Source of the DNA: Cystobasidiomycetes sp. EMM_F5
Lineage: Eukaryota
Direction of reading: 5' to 3'
Assembly (NCBI GenBank): GCA_051047955.1
Contig: JBPGPT010000011.1
Coordinates: forward strand, 1-64,000
DNA length: 64,000 nucleotides
The notes beneath the pieces are model-generated. The model saw nothing but the letters and a program-made list of their open reading frames with translations, did no database searches and was not told the DNA's origin. Below are positions 14,872 to 33,489 of this stretch, in pieces (within the stretch, counting starts at the first letter, position 1; each line of letters begins with the position of its first letter). Both the position numbers and the translations under genes were made by a program.

Positions 14872-17800
14872 ATGCCCCCTCGCAAGTTTCATCGCCCCGA
14901 CCCCGCGACTCTGGGTCCGCATTACTTCGAGTCGCGAGATGCGTGAGTGAAAGGCTTCACCATGTACGAGGGACCGCATCTTACAAATGGCCGCATGTAG
15001 CGTAAATGACTTATATGGCGAGCGTACACCATTTACCGGCACTGGCGCGTGGCCAGTTCGAGTCGACGAGCAGACTGTCGATGTAAGATCCGCATCCAGG
15101 CGTAAGTATTCTGTGAGGCTGATGACATGACTGCTGCAACAGACCCCAGATAAATGGACGTCGTCAGCGTGTATTTCGTGCTCAATAGGCTGCGGTGTCG
15201 ACATAGGCGTTAAGAATGGCAGAAGTAGATCGCATCGACACTTGTCACTGCTCACCACTCAACACAGCTGACTTGTATTCGCTTACTCATGCAGTGGTTG
15301 GCATTCGCGGCAGGGCTAATGACAGAGTTAACAAAGGCAGGCTGGGATGCAAAGTGGGTTATATCGTTGCTGGCAGTGCTGCTGGCTAATGCGCATTTTT
15401 GCGGTCAATGTGCAGGGAATGTACACTTGGCAGTCGACGCAGTCCAATGACCGTCTGACACATCCTCTTATCCGGCAAAAGGATGGATCGTTCCGCAAAG
15501 CATCATGGGACGAGGCTATGACCCTAATCGTCGAGAATACGAAAGACGTGCAGAAGCGTTTATCATCTCATGGCATCGCATTCTATACCTCTGGACAGTT
15601 GTTTCTTGAGGAATACCTTACGCTCGCTGTCATTGGGAAAGCCGGTCTCGGCACCTTGCATATGGATGGAAACACAAGGCTATGTACAGCAACCGCAGCA
15701 GCGAGTATGCGCGAAAGCTTTGGCGCAGACGGCCAACCAGGAAGCTATAGCGATGTGGATGTATGTGACTGCCTCTTCTTGGTCGGGCATAATCCTGGTG
15801 AGACTAGTCTTTATCGTCATAGTTTGCAGTCACTCACGACGCTACCGCCAGCTGCAACTGGAACAGTTTTATGGATGCGCATGTTGGATCGGTTGGCTGA
15901 CAAGGAGAATGCACCCAAGTTGGTTGTGATAGATCCGCGACGGACTTCAGTCGGCGCAGCAGCTACAGTGTTGCTACAGCCAAAGATCGGCACAAATCTA
16001 GCAGTCCTGAACGGCATTCAGCATCTACTGATAGAAAGTGGCCAGTACGATCAGGAATATATCAACAAAGTAGATCCCGTAATTCGCTTGCTTGCCCAGA
16101 TCACGCTCTGACTACCTTTTCGGAATTTTACAGAGTGTCTGCGATTTTGACAACCTGAAGAAGGTTGTCAAGCAATACAATCCACACGAAGTGGAAAAGA
16201 TTACAGGTGTACCAGCTGCAAAATTAAGGTTGGCAGCGCAAATCATTGGAGAAAGCAAAAGGCTTCTCTCCACCGCTCTGCAAGGAGTCTATCAGTCGAA
16301 TCAGGCTACGGCTTCAGCTTGCGCCATCAACAATATCAATCTTATGAGAGGCATGATTGGTAAACCGGGATGTGGCTTGTTCCAAATGAACGGTCAGCCA
16401 ACAGCACAAAACAACCGCGAAACCGGCTGCGATGGTGAGTACCCATGCTTTCGTAACTTTCAAAATATGGATCATATGCAAAGCGTATGTTCTACCACCT
16501 TTTATCCTGTGCGAGGTTGATTACCATACTGCAGCTGGCGGATTCTTGGAATATCGACGTAGCAAAGCTGCCACATCATGCGCAGCCAACTCACATCAAT
16601 GATCTGTTGAACTACGTTAGTACATATTTGCATTTGTATCAGCTTGGAACGCTGATCAACCACTGCTCAGATGGAAGACGGCTCTATTGAATTATTGTGG
16701 ATCAGCGGTACCAATCCTGCAGTCTCTCTGCCGCAGTTGGAGAGGGTAAGAAAGATTCTCACTCAGCCAAACATGTTCGTGGTCGCGCAAGACATCTTTC
16801 CGTACGTACCCAGAGTCTCGTTCGGAGATGACTCTGATTCTTTTCTCTTCATGCCGGTAGGAACGAAACAACCGCTCTGGCGGACGTCATCCTACCCGCA
16901 GCTGGGTGAGATTTCCATCAGCGGACGGACGAGGCAATCGCTGAGATACATATGCCAGATGGGGGGAGAAAACGGGCTGTTACACGTGTGTGAAGCGGGA
17001 TCTAGACTTGAGACTGGATACTAACGATTTGCGCGACAGCAACGTTGATCGTACTGTTCATCTGTCGAGCAAGGCCGTCGACGCCCCGGGTGAATGCAGG
17101 AGCGACTTCGATGTGAGCCAATGCCGTGTCGGATACTGTTGACAAAAGTTTAAACGATTCGCAAAACAGATATGGGTTGATTACGCAACGAGAATGCAAT
17201 TTACTGACAAGTCTGGACAACCACTCGTATACTGGAAGACCCCTAAAGAGGCTTTCGAGGTATGGCGGCGAATGTCCAAGGATACGCTGTGCGATTACTC
17301 AGGGTACGAGTGCCTATGATCAAGTGACTGAATCAACACTGAAACTATGTAATCAAATTCCCAAGACTCACATACGAGTTGCTGGAATCTGCAGGGGGTA
17401 TGCAATGGCCTTGCAACGCCCTCGCGTCCCCGAAAGGTACAGAGAGGCTTTACACCAGCGGCGTCTTCCCAACGTTCTTGCACAATGTACGTTGTATCAG
17501 ACTATCTGTGATTACGGTGCGGCTGACGCTGTTAAACGTAGGTACAAACATGGACATCTGATCCTGAAACCGGGACGCCCTTGAGTCTGCAGCAATTTAA
17601 AACATTAGCTCCAGAAGGCCGTGCTATCTTTAAAGCCGCACACTACCGTGAATCGGATGAGATGCCGTCGGAGCGATATCCATTCTACCTATCAACTGGT
17701 CGTCGTGTCCATCACTTTCATACTCGGACCAAAACAGGCAGGACGGAAAAATTGCATAAGGCAATGGAAGACACGTTCGTTCAGATCAACGAGGATGATG

Positions 17801-19010
17801 CAAAGAAACTTGGCGTAACAAACGGCGAGATGGTGGTCGTCCGAAGTCCTCATGGCGAAGCACAAATGCCAGCAAAAGTTGGCGACATTGAGGTCGGCCA
17901 AACATTCAGTGAGCGCAATGCTGCGCGGCGTTGTCGCATGCAGTAGCGTTAATATGTGGTTTCTTCAGTACCTTTTCACTTCGGTACCGGAGATTCGGAC
18001 GAGGTAGGGGGACGAGCGCGAGCAGCGAACGAATTGACTCGTTCCGGCTGGGTAAGAATGTGGTGATGCTGTCAGAGTTTGCCGTACTTACAGACCGGTG
18101 CAGGATCCCATCAGCAAACAGCCTTACTTCAAAGGCGGAGCCATCAGCATTGAAGTGTGCAAGCAAGGGTAAGTATTGTGACTCGCGCCCTAGAGGGATG
18201 TCTCTGATATAGTGTCGTCAAAGCGAGGTTGTCATTTTCGAAAAGCAAACTGAGGCTGGCCATCGGGCTGACCAGCGCGTAGATGGTGGTCGACTGGCTG
18301 TCATTGAGAAGGAAGGCCGTCAAAAGCATTTGGCCGACATGATTGGTCTTGTCGATGCTGCCAGCGAACAGTTCCGAGATGCAGCTACGAAAATTATTGC
18401 TAAGCACAAGAGTACGCATGAGTATGAGGTCAGGAGCGGTTTAAACTTAATGTTGACTTTGGATCGCGGTACGCCTCAGACATGTTTGTATCGGGATTGA
18501 TGAAAGACAGGCTAACGAGTTCTGGTTGAAGACGCCATCAACATGATGAGCCCGCTTTTCACTAAGTATGGGGACAACAAAGACAAAGCCCATCTCTCAG
18601 ACATTGTAAGTCACTGCATTCTGATACGTAAGGTGTCTCTCGCTAATCTGAAGTTGCATGAAGGACGCTTTGACGGCAGCGCTGTATCCCCAGCATCGTC
18701 GGGAGCAAGTCGGGACATTTAACATAATGATGGATCTCGTTGGTCTCAATATATTAGTCGGCGCCATTCGTGCATACCTGATTCCGCTGACCGCTGCGGC
18801 ACAAGCACTACACGACACCACATTTGGCGAATCCGTAAAGAGTGCTGACAACGAGTTCGCTCGCATTGAGGCCTGGATCGTCAATCAGTAGGTTTGCTCA
18901 ATCAACGTGCACGAGACTCTATGACATTAACCATATTAATGCGTAGAATCAAGGTTCGGGGACCTCAGGTTCTCATCGTTCCGGGACTTCGGGCCTCTGG
19001 AGATTTGTAG
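14872..19010 (+). CDS. DMSO-reductase-family molybdopterin (bis-MGD) oxidoreductase, NasA/NapA/FdhF-like, with a C-terminal helical extension; about 20 predicted introns
   Basis: Spliced translation MPPRKFH...YGERTPF...WPVRVDE...SACISCSIGCG (Fe-S)...GRLGCKG...DRLTHPLIR...SWDEA...FYTSGQLFLEEY...MDGNTRLCTATA...GHN...IDPRRT...GQPTAQNNRE...GTNPAVS...WGEKTG...LSTGRRVHHFHTRTKT...DPISKQPYFK. Confidence 0.93.
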
Positions 19011-19421: not shown

Positions 19422-20238
19422 ATGCCTCAGATGTATACTGGCTTATTACTCTGCGGAGGACAGTCTTTGCGCAGTCAGCAGATGTCGACTTGTGCTATCA
19501 AAATGAAGGACATAAAACTGAAATGGATTCGGAACGCAGTGACGCAGGACAAGTCGTTCCTGAGACACCCACAATCCAACCTGCCTCTATTCCAACACAT
19601 CCTGCAAAATGTAATCCTGCCGCTGAATCTGCCTGGCAACATTGTCATTTCCTGCCGCGACAACGCCCAAGCAACCCGAATACTAGCTGTACCGGGTGTA
19701 GCTGCAATAGCCAATGTGGTTCTGGATGACATTGAGTTATTAGGAGACATTGGGCCTGCCAGAGGACTGCTTTCAGCGCACTTGCGTTACCCAGGGATAA
19801 CATACGTGGTCATCGGTGTTGATTTCCCGCAAGCTAATTCTGAAGCCCTCTACGAGCTCATGGCTGGCCACAAAGCGATGGACAAGGATAGCCCGGTAAC
19901 ATGTTTCGTTCATCCCGAAGACGGTCACCCGGAGGTCAGTCAATGTCGTTGCTCCATTTAGGAGAATATGCAAAGACAATAGAGCTGATGCTTGTGAACT
20001 CCAGCCATTGATGTCGATCTGGACGCCGGTCGCGCTGCAACGTCTGCGCAAAAACAGCGCCAAGGGGAAAAGCGGCCCTTGTTTTAGCGCAAAACAGCTC
20101 TGGAAAGACCTCCATGGAGTTGATATGGCCATTGGAGCAGGACTGATCCAGCCGAGCCAGCCGCAGTGGATCGCCGATACCGACACTCCAATTGAGTGGG
20201 AGAAAGCTTTCGGTATCAAGCCGGAGGTACACGTTTGA
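19422..20238 (+). CDS. mobA: Molybdenum cofactor guanylyltransferase (MobA-like NTP transferase)
   Basis: GLLLCGGQSLRMTQDKSFL after removing an in-frame 66-nt intron (matches the MobA LAGG.S.RMG.DK motif), DIGPARGLLSA, VIGVDFP, HPEPLMSIW, DTDTPIEW (NvNTP.d-like). Adjacent to a bis-MGD-type enzyme. Confidence 0.85.
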
Positions 20239-20333: not shown

Positions 20334-21823
20334 TCATACCCGGTGTAACGGAAAACAATCTAGCAATCGTCCTTCCTGCTCATTTTGGCCTTCCCTCAGT
20401 ACTGCCCAACAGTTGGCCTCCGATAGCTGTCTCACTAAGCCACTGCCTCTGGCGAGTAATTCAACGATCACTTCAGACGAATGCAAGTCAGGCGACATTT
20501 TGTATTGTGCGAGGAAAAAACTGGTATGCTTCGTAGCTGTCACTGATAGGTGCGCATCGATGGATTGCCTTTCCTCAATGCATGCTTTTTTGGGAAAGTT
20601 GCCCTTGCGCACAGTCGCTGGCGCTTGTAATCTAGCTCGCAGGTTCGGGACTTCTTTTCTGCGTCCAGTGAGATGTCTCAGAAATGGTATAACGATGAAG
20701 CGAAGAGACGCAGCGGCGGCGATAGGATTTCCGGGCAGCGAAAATACCGGCAGCAATCCCGTTGACGACAGAGAAGACTTCCCTGGCCCTCCTTCTGAAA
20801 ATAATGCCACCAAGACGGGGTGGCCGGGGCGTATGCGAACGCCGTGGAACAGGATATCCGCGCCCATTTCAATCAGAGAATCTGCTCATCTGTAGTGAGT
20901 ATTGGATTCCGACCGGCAGACATTGTGTAGCACTAACCGCGAACGTAGTCATGCTGTCCTTTCGACACCCCGCCTGTTGTAATCAGCACATCGTAATCGC
21001 TGCGAACATCGCGAACAGCAATCTTAAAGTCATCAGGGTCGTCGCCAACGTTTGCAATCCAAGTGACGTCTGAATATCCGCTGTCCTTCAGTGCTGCTTC
21101 AATGTAAGGTCCGTTGCTGTTGTGTATTCGCCCATCTTGAATATCGCCGCGCGAATGTTCGTCACTCGAAGGGTTTGCGACCTCCTTTCCCGTTGTCAAC
21201 ACGGCAATCTTGGGTTTGCTGTACACCCTAAGCTTCTTGATACCGTTTGAAGTAAGAGCTGCGATTTGACCTGGCCCGACTATTTCTTGCGCGTCAAGAA
21301 TGACCATATCAGGTTGGAAATCCTCGCCTGCCAATCTTCGATGCTGTGATGCGTGGACCGGCTCGGTTAGCTCTATGTAGCCCGGTCTGTCCTGTATCAT
21401 TCGGACAATCTCGACGCGTGCGCAGGCATCGTAATGCCGAGCTTCTCCATCACCATCCCTACTGCCTATAATGCGTGGAAAAGGAGCGCCGGTATTGATT
21501 CTCCAGCAGGACAAGGCTGGAACGGCATGGACGGATGGGTACGTCGGGGGAAGATCACCAGCTGCTATGCTACCCACGATGCGAAGCTGGACGGGTTTGT
21601 CGCAAGATGCCGATGTCGTCTCTTCATGCGACACAGCATAGCCATCCATCGCAGAGTTGTCGTACGGGGGTAGGAGTGTCGCAGAGACGGTACGTTCATG
21701 CGACGTATACCCTAAAGCTTGCGAGACATCAACCTCTCTTATCGTGCATTTAGTCGAGCTCGCTCTGAGTCTGTCGGCCAGATCTAATATTCGATGGAAC
21801 GCATCCTGATAAGATATCGACAT
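20334..21823 (-). CDS. moeA: Molybdopterin molybdotransferase MoeA (gephyrin E domain only), 2 exons
   Basis: PPYDNSAMDGYAV, RINTGAP, LTTGKEV, NSNGP, ITTGGVSKGQHDYV, RPGHP, FSLPGNPIAA, SEANCW. No MogA/G domain is seen at either end. Confidence 0.93.
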
Positions 21824-23245: not shown

Positions 23246-24940
23246 ATGGCTATTCGCCATTTCCTCGTTGCCTTCCTGGTCTGCACAGCGGAAGGCGGTC
23301 TGGTCGGCACTACATCATCAGGGCCGAACGTTCTGGCACTCGTCTACAATGACCAGTATCGGCCTACGGAACTGGGTCTACTGACCGACAGTATCCTCCG
23401 TTACGGTACCTTCAAGAATGCTAAGCAGTATCCCCTTTTGCGAGCACATCTCGACGTATCGGGACTGGTCCAAGATAGCGTCACCTATGTTGGCAAGAGT
23501 CTTGGCGCTCTGCTGGACAGACCACATTCGAGCAAACCAGTCGGTAAACATGCCAATTTTGGCCGCAAGCGTAGCCTCCTCGGGTCACTTTTGCATATAG
23601 AGCTCGACATGGGGTTGGACGATGATGACGGAAGTAGCCATGGCAGCGCATCCATCGGCGTCGGCGTTGGCAAGGGTCTTGCAATGGATGTTACTCTGAG
23701 CGGAAGTCGGACGAGTCTTTCAGACTCTGGTTGGCAGGGTGCAACCACCACGCGCTTGGTCAATAGCCAGAGTGATAACGCTGTCAGTCAGGATCTGCAC
23801 ACTCGTGCGGCTGAATCACCGGCGCTAACTCTTGCTTGTCCCATGCGGAATGCTAACAACGTGCGCTGTAGTGGTTTGCGCACATCTCGTTTGGCAATCC
23901 CGTGCAGACCTTGGTAATGTTCTTGGACTGCGGTTCGGCCGATACTGTGGTATACAACAGTACATGCAAGAATTGCCAGCTTAACAATCATACCGCTTTC
24001 GATAGTCGACAATCAAAATCATTCAAATCTACCTCAGTATCGTTTAGTACGCAGTACGGTGATGGAACGACACTGCGAGGTGTTCTCGGCAACGATTATG
24101 TGAACGTGACGCAGTCGTTGCGTACTCCTCCTACGCAGATCCTGGCCGTCATCGACAGCAGAACCGGAGGCAGCGATACGCACCGCTGGGATGGTATAAT
24201 GGGTATAGGACCCGATCATCTCAGCTTCGTGGAAGGCAACGTGACGCCTCTGTCAAATCTCGTCAAGAATGGTGAGTTAGCGCAACCCTTGGTTGGAATT
24301 GCCCTCGTCAAGCAAGATAAGCTTACTGGAGCACCTGGCGGCGGCGAGTACCGATGGGGCGAACTCAACCAAAACTACATTCTGGGAGATGTCGTTTACA
24401 CGCCCGTCTCGAGCTCGTACTTTTGGGGTACGCAGATGAACGGGATATTTGTCAATGGCGAACAGATGCTCTCTACTAGCGACTATCGACGTGCACTTTT
24501 CGACACGGGCACCACTCTAGTCTACACATCAGATGCTGCTGCTAAGAGGATACATGGCGAGATTGCCGGTGCCCAATTTGATGACCAGAGGGGATTTTGG
24601 TATGTTCCGTGTGATGCGACTGGCGCTCCAAACGTCTTTTTCGAAATCGGCGGAGTACGTCGAGGCGTTCCAGCCAGCGATATTGCCTTTCGACCGAGTA
24701 GTACTGGGAATGGCCTGTGCATGTCTGGTATCCAAGGCGGTTCAGACCAATACACTCTTCTCGGTGCCGTATTCATCAAGAACCAGTGTAAGCCAGTAAT
24801 CCATACAAAGACGGAGGTTCCAAGCGGTGTGACGTCCTATCTTCTACTGCACAGACCTGGTCTTGAATTACGGCAGTGCAACAAACTACAGTCTATCTGT
24901 CGGCCTGGCTGCCCGGAGAGATGTTGGTGTGATAGTGTGA
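23246..24940 (+). CDS. Secreted pepsin-like aspartic protease (family A1)
   Basis: Signal peptide MAIRHFLVAFLVCTAEG, long pro-region, FLDCGSAD, flap QYGDGT, DGIMGIG, ALFDTGTT, LLGAVFIKN. Confidence 0.9.
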
Positions 24941-25225
24941 GACTGGCCGGGAGTTTTGAGGAAGCGGTACCGCTGGGCTTAAGGTATGGAAAGCGAAATG
25001 GACTATTTGATTATCGGATTTCTCCGATGTAGTCGGACGCATTTTCGAATCTTGGGGTGGGTGATCTGAAAGCGAGGCACACTCCGCCAACAGGACACGT
25101 TGCATACTGCTGCCATGATTGGCGTATTTCCTGGTCGTTCTCAATCTGAGGATGTTGTTGTAGTCTGCTCACTTGCCCAGGCCGAACCTTGGCGGCAGCC
25201 GTCGCCGTTGTTTTGCAAAAGTGAA

Positions 25226-31967: not shown

Positions 31968-33489
31968 TCAAGTAACCGGATTTAAGAGTGCGATGATTTC
32001 CAAAGCCTGGGTCAGCGAACTGCGAGAAGGTTCGAGAAATCTGATGCTCAGATCTTTGTCCCAGTAAAGCTGAATATGTGATTGGTAGCTTACATTCCAC
32101 CTGCCCCTACATCTGCACCAAGGCTGCCCACTCCTACGATCGTCACGTTTTTAAGTGGATTGGTGAACATTATGGTCGAGAATCCCTGCAACGAGAAGAT
32201 CAGCATTTAATAACAATGTCAGCAGTGCAAGCATGATGCTCCCTTGCCTTAATGCCTCCATCGTGGCCGTAAAATCCGTTCAGCTGAATGTCTCCCAGAC
32301 CGTACGTTAGATTTATGCCGCCAGGAAGCGGACCATACGGTAGGTTCGGCGGACCGTACAGACGCTGGCGAGACAGGTCGGCAGAATACGAGTACCCGCG
32401 TACCATAGCTTCAACCCAAGTCTTCATATCCTGTAGTGTTGAGACCATAGCCCCCGCCGCACCAGGATTGTCGGGATTGTATAGAGTGGCATCACGTATT
32501 CCCGTTGTTGCATTGGGAGGATAGAAGGCATAGCCAGAAGGATGAGGATCAGGAAGTGTGAGGTTACCAACCGGCCATGAAGTTTGGCTAAGGTTGAGCG
32601 GGACGATGAAGTTGTTTTTGACATATTCGTGAATGGGTACGCCTGCAAGCTGTTCTACTATGATTCCGGCAAGTATGAAGTTTGTATTGGAGTAGTTGAA
32701 GTATCTGGTCTGACCTGGAAGAAAGTACGGCATTTGTTGCGAGGTGAAATTGAGTATTTGCGCCGTCGAGTATGCCATAGTGGGATCCAGGTTCGGTCCA
32801 TTGACATATTGCGGAGTTAGGCCGAACTCAAATATACCTGATGTCATACTGTGTTGTGACACGGCAGGTGCATATTAGCGCAATTTTCCTGGTTGGTACG
32901 GTATGCCGTTCACTAGATAGTTACCTGAGCATTTCACGAATGGTGATGTTGCTGGAATACGGAATCACTCCCTGCGAACCATTGTAGAATCGACTCAATG
33001 TCTGATTGAATCTGCAAGTCAGTACGAGGGCCAGCGATAGGTACCGTCAACGTGACTGACATCATTCAGCGAGAGACGCCCCTCCGAAACCAGCTTTAGT
33101 AAGGCGCTGGCTGTGAATGTCTTGGTGTTTGACGCAATCCTGAAATGGTTGTCTAGTCTGAATGGCTGCGAATTCCCTAGCCCTTGAGTTCCGAAAGATT
33201 GGCATAGAGTTCCATTGTTTGGCGTGGTAATAAGGAGAGCTCCGCCCGGCGAGCTCGTGAGATTGAGTTGATTGGCAAAGAACTGGATTATTTGTGCAGA
33301 GACATTCGTTTGCGGTAAGAGGGTATTGACCTGGCCGCTGACATTTGCATTGACAGCAGGGAATGGAACGACAGTCGAGAAAGTAGTGCTGTTGGTATAG
33401 TATACCGCGCTCTGGATGCTCGTATTTTGTGAGGTTGCAAGCTGTATCCAGCAGACAGCGAGAATGGTCAACGCCCTCAGCTCGCGCAT
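31968..33489 (-). CDS. Secreted beta-lactamase-family serine hydrolase (class C / DD-peptidase-like)
   Basis: Signal peptide, FRIASNTKTF (SxxK), YSNTNF (YxN), AAGAMVST, YGLG, YGHDGGIKGFST. The intron after GGIK starts with GC. Confidence 0.9.

Follow-up and report, generated by a model that had tools for sequence, protein, structure and literature searches.

Enzymes of the Mo-bisPGD family are called exclusive to prokaryotes in the consulted part of a 2023 review (PMC10609526), and PMC10100899 does not mention fungi (0 occurrences of 'fung'). A survey by Higgins et al. (2018; PMC6161760) reports 'napA' homologs of proteobacterial ancestry in 75 of 712 fungal genomes (about 10%). In the sections consulted, it leaves their role open ('intriguing'). 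Judged from database names, these homologs are probably the same genes as the one analyzed here. The survey treats them as NapA homologs, and its consulted sections do not mention the altered site, the loss of an FS0 ligand, the ferritin-like domain or the clustering with MobA and MoeA genes that are described below.

A bacterial protein that bears on their function, NarB of M. smegmatis (MSMEG_2837), is known from a null knock-out and from SigF dependence only. Its listing as a nitrate reductase follows annotation alone, according to the relevant passage of PMC3706326. In the portion of PMC4694148 that was consulted, narB and MSMEG_2838 expression falls 3-4 fold without SigF (narB 4.4/3.2-fold), and a GTTT-N16-GGGTA sequence lies upstream of both genes. 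Deletion of narB left nitrate use unaffected, and a strain lacking only MSMEG_4206, with narB intact, used no nitrate; narB RNA was undetected in that study (PMC7816997, consulted sections).

An intact, spliced fungal gene in a cofactor gene cluster

The window analyzed here is a stretch of 64,000 nucleotides from Cystobasidiomycetes sp. EMM_F5 (contig JBPGPT010000011.1, positions 1 to 64,000 of the forward strand). It contains the following features, given with strand and basis.

14872..19010, plus: Mo-bisPGD enzyme gene with PF04879, PF00384, PF01568 and a helical C-terminal domain (spliced model, Pfam, contig joints)
15170..15193, plus: three FS0 cysteines, C61, C64 and C68 (Pfam, spliced model, alignment)
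15345..15353, plus: Gly96 at the fourth FS0 Cys position, then Cys97 (15348-15350) and conserved Lys98 (alignment)
15662..15697, plus: Mo-ligand loop, Cys188 (15683-15685) then Thr189, which is Met in Nap/Nas and His or Gln in formate dehydrogenase (FDH) types (sequence, alignments)
15728..15730, plus: Asp203, present in all nitrate-reductase references shown and in no FDH reference (alignment)
16281..16292, plus: Gln348 and Tyr351, which are Met308 and Asn311 in D. desulfuricans NapA; P. denitrificans NasC has Gln at the first (alignment)
16389..16421, plus: funnel motif with Asn384 (Thr in Nap/Nas, Arg in FDH), Gln386, Arg393 and Glu394 (alignment)
18300..18990, plus, limits approximate: fused ferritin-like four-helix bundle (profile matches, model of a bacterial stand-alone homolog, fold searches)
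19422..20238, plus: MobA-like guanylyltransferase gene, 3 exons, 226 aa (PF12804 E 1.5e-5, spliced model)
20334..21823, minus: second, stand-alone MoeA (molybdenum insertase), 2 exons (Pfam, spliced model)

The enzyme gene is an intact, spliced, fungal gene of a bacterial-type molybdenum enzyme. Spliced alignment to a homolog profile resolves 21 exons that encode 992 residues with no internal stop. The 20 introns are 50-70 nt long and all GT..AG; intron 1 was placed by hand, and introns 1 and 2 are positioned from alignment alone. Among the joints listed in public contigs, at least 15 of the 20 predicted introns are spliced out at their predicted GT..AG sites. These contigs come from three public runs of one study that are guessed to be RNA, include three further joints beyond those listed, and bear on the enzyme gene, with no contig cover over MobA or MoeA. 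Genes near the enzyme in the window are eukaryotic (pyruvate kinase, COG3, a SAGA subunit and Mim2). Bacterial contamination is ruled out by these neighbors and the 20 spliceosomal introns, and a pseudogene is ruled out by the stop-free reading frame. The three Pfam domains and a four-domain fold place the protein in the Mo/W-bisPGD (DMSO reductase) superfamily. Inspection of its N-terminus by eye revealed no twin-arginine or hydrophobic leader, and the 520 bp upstream of the gene contain no GATA or NirA-like motif.

The MobA-like gene and MoeA lie directly downstream of the enzyme gene. On the unspliced frame, the MobA-like gene scores 25.7 bits for PF12804 against a cut-off of 27, which its homolog at metagenome locus L136 passes; a homolog search returned the protein itself and one other. 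The MoeA is a second copy, since contig C46 of the same genome holds a gephyrin-like gene with which it shares about 30% identity. This genome also carries MoaC, and the bis-MGD gene set (MoaC, molybdenum insertase and MobA) is therefore present. The housekeeping pathway supplies molybdopterin, the neighboring MoeA would load molybdenum and MobA would add GMP to yield bis-MGD, as the functions of these families suggest.

A second fungal arrangement is seen at metagenome loci L136/L137, where MoeA and MobA lie upstream of an intron-bearing relative, and one Monosporascus gene model fuses MoeA to the enzyme. We propose that fungi acquired the enzyme gene from bacteria long ago and kept it with cofactor genes of its own; the flanking genes of this second locus and the MoeA fusion favor such a linkage to cofactor supply. 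At the closest intron-bearing locus, which lacks upstream DNA, neither MobA nor MoeA occurs in the 6 kb downstream. The existence of a spliced fungal gene with a MobA and a MoeA of its own, arranged in two ways among fungi, is an argument for the assembly of bis-MGD enzymes in many fungi, and it stands against the prokaryote-only statement in the consulted part of the 2023 review (PMC10609526).

Several other genes in these settings can be recorded. MobA-like genes occur near the corresponding bacterial gene in two Gaiellaceae genomes (L040:2367-3011 and L046:5110-5775), a possible echo of the fungal cluster. Directly 5' of the window enzyme is an intron-rich MFS transporter gene (11601 to ~14310, plus strand; weak MFS_1 match in one exon, E 0.003), which may resemble allantoate permeases. 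An aspartyl protease with a long N-terminal extension (23246-25032, plus) adjoins the cluster with no sign of a link, and an exon for a beta-lactamase-fold (PF00144) protein lies at 32200-32862 on the minus strand.

Active site and family position

The first-pass annotation drew attention to two unusual motifs, and both are found where it placed them. Position 15662 begins MDGNTRLCTATA, with the TGT codon for the molybdenum-ligating Cys at 15683-15685, and position 16392 begins GQPTAQNNRE. Both lie within coding exons of one 992-aa frame. Among 8000 homologs scored, 4803 passed, and the best 120 of these were used for motif counts. Cys-Thr and GQPT[AS]QNxRE each occur in 120 of 120, so the motif is not unique to the window gene. 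The hosts of these nearest homologs are ascomycetes, basidiomycetes, a chytrid and soil bacteria. By this sequence evidence, the motifs mark a large Mo-bisPGD clade in fungi and soil bacteria. The best 80 of 331 actinobacterial loci are likewise all Cys-Thr, with Glu replacing the second Gln of the funnel motif in 58. In a Streptomyces flavalbus copy (L223), the motifs fall in two reading frames; this copy is therefore frameshifted or mis-assembled.

The boundary of the clade can be traced with representatives from an unindexed search (n=150), when rows with more than 300 aligned columns and both positions filled are counted. At identities of 38% or higher, 17 of 31 rows have Cys-Thr; below that level, none of 91 does. 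The other 14 of the closer rows consist of 3 with Cys-Met and 11 that are degenerate or misaligned, and the more distant rows are dominated by Cys-Met (53) and Cys-His (28). The Mo-Cys and the funnel Arg and Glu are invariant within the Cys-Thr clade. This clade probably accounts for thousands of database entries that are named 'nitrate reductase' or 'napA', and such entries may inflate nitrogen-cycle counts. The literature searched, whose coverage excludes most subscription journals, yielded no assay of a Cys-Thr member.

In reference sequences, the residue after the Mo-Cys is Met in 11 of 11 proteins of nitrate-reductase type and His or Gln in 8 of 8 of FDH type. D. desulfuricans NapA also has Cys-Met. 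Among all of these, structural characterization exists only for NapA and FdhF of E. coli and for NapA of D. desulfuricans. Operon context identifies P. denitrificans NasC, and annotation or nirB linkage the remainder. The CT/GQPTAQ motifs are thus foreign to the nitrate-reductase references in this sample. The Nap/Nas funnel consensus originally used for comparison (GQPS/NA.G..RE) proves too narrow, as actinobacterial NasA reads GQGNGQGGRE.

Nine site columns were compared. The window enzyme has five residues in common with Nap/Nas (Cys188, Asp203, Gln386, Arg393 and Glu394) and two with FDH. All four funnel residues of assimilatory nitrate reductases (Asp203, Gln386, Arg393 and Glu394) are present. 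Thr189, Tyr351 and Asn384 are specific to the clade, and Gln348 is also found in P. denitrificans NasC. In FdhF-type enzymes a His follows the Mo ligand and an Arg opens RGQNNVQG; the window enzyme has Thr189 and Asn384 at these positions. Cys-Met and four FS0 cysteines, the hallmarks of both NapA and NasA/NasC/NarB, are absent.

A tree of 24 rows (IQ-TREE, LG+G4; supports from the raw Newick) places the Cys-Thr clade on a branch of 0.67 with bootstrap 100, joins it to NapA and to NasA of the GQPNAMGGRE type at 100, and sets the FDHs apart at 100. This tree should be read with caution because its branches are long and its sampling is thin; a second tree has the same shape. Three fungal rows cluster at bootstrap 99. 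Identity is 51-72% within the clade versus 26-34% to sequences outside, and the nearest outgroups, P0133 and P0136 (39-41% identity), are four-Cys, Cys-Met proteins. These two, together with P0128 and P0139, are intermediates between the clade and ordinary Nas/Nap that have mixed site residues. By its place in these trees, the Cys-Thr clade branches inside the Nap/Nas nitrate-reductase lineage.

Family models do not capture this group. Six full-length homologs were scored against NCBIfam and reached no cut-off. The NapA models TIGR01706 and PRK13532 give 278-380 bits against cut-offs of 904-931, the NasC model NF047855 gives 382-431 against 1100, and NF041323 gives 351-389 against 1000. The NasC model is narrow, for even NasA genes linked to nirB fall short of its cut-off (best 784). 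Scores also stay below the FdhF/YdeP family cut-offs (TIGR01701, NF007406), with YdeP models at 65 of 1473 and 168 of 582 bits, and the DMSO/TMAO, selenate, thiosulfate and arsenate families score far lower. The top raw score, 473-505 bits against a cut-off of 666, belongs to the FDH alpha model.

A predicted structure for the full-length homolog P0050 (pLDDT 85.5) has D. desulfuricans NapA as its best fold match (PDB 2NAP, 2JIM and 2JIO; TM 0.91-0.92 over the target, 30% identity), with FDH-H almost equal. The monomeric layout and the equivalents of Mo-Cys140, Asp155, Gln346 and Arg354 are kept. The window enzyme differs from this NapA in four site residues (Met141 to Thr, Met308 to Gln, Asn311 to Tyr and Thr344 to Asn), in having neither a fourth FS0 Cys nor a nap operon, and in its extra ferritin-like domain. 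NasA/NasC/NarB proteins such as P. denitrificans NasC form a sister lineage that has the same funnel-motif length and terminal Arg-Glu and is, like the clade, apparently cytosolic. They differ in being Cys-Met proteins of 28-34% identity to the clade, encoded beside nirB and transporters where the clade never is. E. coli FdhF and YdeP have the fold class in common with the window enzyme, with 29% identity to FdhF; the YdeP sequence did not pass the alignment filter. The raw score and the fold match to FDH-H could speak for a formate dehydrogenase variant, but this reading is highly improbable in view of the missing His and Arg, the separation of FDHs at full bootstrap support, and a host genome in which no FdhD was found.

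The first-pass annotation had proposed a distinct subfamily that is neither nitrate reductase nor FDH. The subfamily stands, given its bootstrap of 100, the unreached cut-offs and the gap in identity; its placement apart from nitrate reductases does not, because the clade falls within their lineage and has more site residues in common with Nap/Nas than with FDH. The window enzyme would work like a Nap/Nas oxo-transferase, yet on the features compared it belongs to none of the NapA, NasA and FdhF groups.

The iron-sulfur site has changed along with the Mo-ligand loop. The fourth FS0 position is Gly in 107 of the best 120 of 4803 homologs (Gly-Pro-Lys in 101 and Gly-Cys-Lys in 6; 13 do not match the pattern), and loss of this Cys accompanies Cys-Thr in 12 of 12 representative rows showing both. 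A Cys one residue past the lost ligand also occurs in P0046, P0052, P0058, P0073, P0079 and P0082, which are not the closest relatives of the window gene. Most fungal and proteobacterial members retain three cysteines and the bridging Lys. FS0 cysteines are missing from most mycobacterial members, and in the alignment those of Nocardia, Streptomyces and Rhodococcus lack them entirely. The window enzyme probably holds a [3Fe-4S] cluster or one re-ligated by Cys97, which may restore four-Cys coordination.

The C-terminal ~170 residues form a ferritin-like bundle that is fused in fungi and proteobacteria and is a separate downstream gene in many actinobacteria (70 of the best 80 of 331 loci versus 0 of 29 paralog loci). 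M. smegmatis has this split form, with NarB and MSMEG_2838 in place of the fused window gene. Ferritin topology is recognized in a model of a bacterial homolog (Z 17.8, rmsd 2.7 A over 146 residues; YciE TM 0.77, E 0.003), and ESM Atlas matches to the domain, with scores under 0.9, serve as a lead only. Conserved di-iron ligands (two E-x-x-H) are absent, and no His is conserved in helix 2 or 4 across 38 rows.

The decay of FS0 ligands and the bundle without E-x-x-H pairs, together with the lack of a conserved electron-partner gene among 208 neighbor ORFs of clade genes, could mean that the protein is non-redox or weakly catalytic, with a role in cofactor binding or storage or in a hydration or transfer reaction without net electron flow. 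We consider this quite improbable: the Mo-Cys and the funnel Arg and Glu do not vary, most fungal and proteobacterial members keep three cysteines and the bridging Lys, and fungi retain two extra genes for cofactor supply.

Nitrate assimilation and stress control

Nitrite reductase and NRT2 genes are absent from the window, as reported, and the searches of the host genome agree. Run exon by exon on an assembly of unknown completeness, they found no eukaryotic nitrate reductase, nitrite reductase, NRT2, NirK, globin or FdhD. The genome has one sulfite-oxidase-like gene and one sulfite reductase, and the NRT2 search gave weak MFS matches only. A PF00174 match on contig C2 was considered as a eukaryotic nitrate reductase and rejected, as it reads as sulfite oxidase with no FAD domain after the dimerization domain. 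The best nirB match (L059) was rejected as well, since the flavin domain alone is covered.

Bacterial carriers show a similar separation. A full nirB is found in 22 of 34 carriers, and in 19 of the 22 a different nasA-like gene lies within 5 kb of nirB, as read from coordinates (8 are Kribbella). The 208 neighbor ORFs include three MFS and two NMT1-type ABC systems, and none has a nitrite/sulfite reductase domain. On a Curtobacterium plasmid (L104:3934-5613), a second molybdopterin-dependent oxidoreductase is annotated directly upstream of the clade gene. DyP-type peroxidase genes lie beside clade genes in two proteobacterial genomes (L008:9133-10122 and L017:3991-5166).

The M. smegmatis results can be brought to bear on this clade. 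A published narB primer encodes FHTRTK, which is present in 39 of 39 clade rows versus 0 of 36 outside the clade. Together with its partner primer, at a spacing of 200 bp, it matches four genomes; each of these has Cys-Thr, and M. smegmatis is not among them. By this signature, M. smegmatis NarB very probably belongs to the Cys-Thr clade. Genome content and the published M. smegmatis data support the conclusion that the window enzyme is not the assimilatory nitrate reductase.

It is accordingly very unlikely that the enzyme is an ordinary assimilatory or dissimilatory nitrate reductase with drifted motifs. Its tree position, the database names 'nitrate reductase' and 'periplasmic nitrate reductase', and the Gln that P. 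denitrificans NasC accepts at one changed position are compatible with such an enzyme. They are countered by scores far below those of NasC (~380-430 bits versus 1100) and NapA (280-380 versus 904-931), by the separate nasA-like genes of most nirB carriers, by the lack of nitrite reductase domains near clade genes and of assimilation genes in the host searches, and by a narB deletion without effect on nitrate use (PMC7816997, consulted sections).

SigF-type promoters (spacing 14-19 nt) precede 26 of 36 mycobacterial and 17 of 44 other actinobacterial loci, or 43 of the best 80 of 331. Two controls, scanned with a looser pattern, each show it at 0 of 36 and 1 of 44. The 80 loci are related and therefore do not represent 80 independent events. 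The motif is found at 3 of 13 alphaproteobacterial loci versus 1 of 13 in the control, and the evidence for stress control covers actinobacteria only. These promoters, combined with the SigF dependence of M. smegmatis narB (PMC4694148, consulted portion), suggest a stress role, and the Cys-Thr clade seems tied to stress survival rather than to nitrate feeding. A defined residue set and a stress promoter make its function directly testable.

Candidate reactions

The reading we tentatively prefer, with somewhat less than even confidence, is cytosolic oxygen-atom transfer on the nitrate/nitrite couple in general stress, outside assimilation. Within this reading, reduction is a possible though doubtful direction and oxidation a decidedly unlikely one. 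The enzyme would be a single-chain cytosolic Mo-bisPGD oxo-transferase descended from Cys-Met nitrate reductases. By alignment, Cys188 would bind molybdenum, and a small oxyanion would enter past Arg393, Glu394, Gln386 and Asp203. One oxygen would be moved in a two-electron step, most likely between nitrate and nitrite. Stressed or stationary-phase cells could use this step for nitrite handling or for dumping reductant, as opposed to assimilation or respiration.

The choice of nitrate/nitrite is favored by the joining of the clade with NapA and NasA in the tree, the retained Asp, Gln, Arg and Glu, the four-Cys, Cys-Met nearest outgroups and the fold match to D. desulfuricans NapA. Neighboring genes add a hint of nitrite. 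An HPP-family gene is present at 13 of 49 bacterial loci, which span alpha-, beta- and gammaproteobacteria and actinobacteria, and in 12 of them it is the gene directly downstream; another lies on a Halomonas plasmid. A plant HPP protein is a nitrite transporter, according to the consulted part of PMC4137279.

Other evidence counts against nitrate/nitrite. The linkage to HPP genes is patchy (1 of the best 80 of 331 actinobacterial loci in a second sample; control flanks are short), and the two HPP-family genes of the fungal genome (G000:C210:487613-488165 and C146:104996-105495) are unlinked to the enzyme. The Met after the Mo-Cys is replaced and three other site residues are changed. M. smegmatis without MSMEG_4206 used no nitrate despite an intact narB, although narB RNA was undetected there (PMC7816997, consulted sections). 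Nitrate reduction would be left with no evident importer or sink, given that the host-genome searches found none of NRT2, nitrite reductase, NirK and globin.

Some of these observations suit a site that has been retuned to another oxo substrate, such as chlorate, selenate or a similar oxyanion, or an N- or S-oxide derived from oxidative damage. The enzyme would then be a detoxifying or repair reductase of the stress phase. Biotin sulfoxide reductase takes electrons directly, and members without a cluster could do the same. Such a function is unlikely but deserves weight: four of nine site residues are unlike Nap/Nas and fixed across fungi and bacteria, Cys-Thr is coupled to loss of the fourth FS0 Cys, actinobacterial members fall in the SigF regulon, and no nitrate pathway was found in the host genome. 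Opposing it are the Asp/Arg/Glu set and tree position of nitrate reductases, the far lower scores of the DMSO/TMAO, selenate, thiosulfate and arsenate families, and the HPP neighbors that indicate nitrite.

A more specific form of the preferred nitrate/nitrite reading is that the enzyme oxidizes nitrite in the cytosol of stressed or resting cells and passes electrons on through a high-potential three-cysteine cluster. We regard this as improbable. Arsenite oxidase has a high-potential three-cysteine cluster. Such a nitrite oxidase, if it exists, would give eukaryotes a functioning Mo-bisPGD enzyme, and it could carry out the unassigned conversion of nitrite to nitrate in heterotrophic nitrification. 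The classic organisms for this process are Aspergillus flavus and Arthrobacter, and both carry the clade gene in homolog listings.
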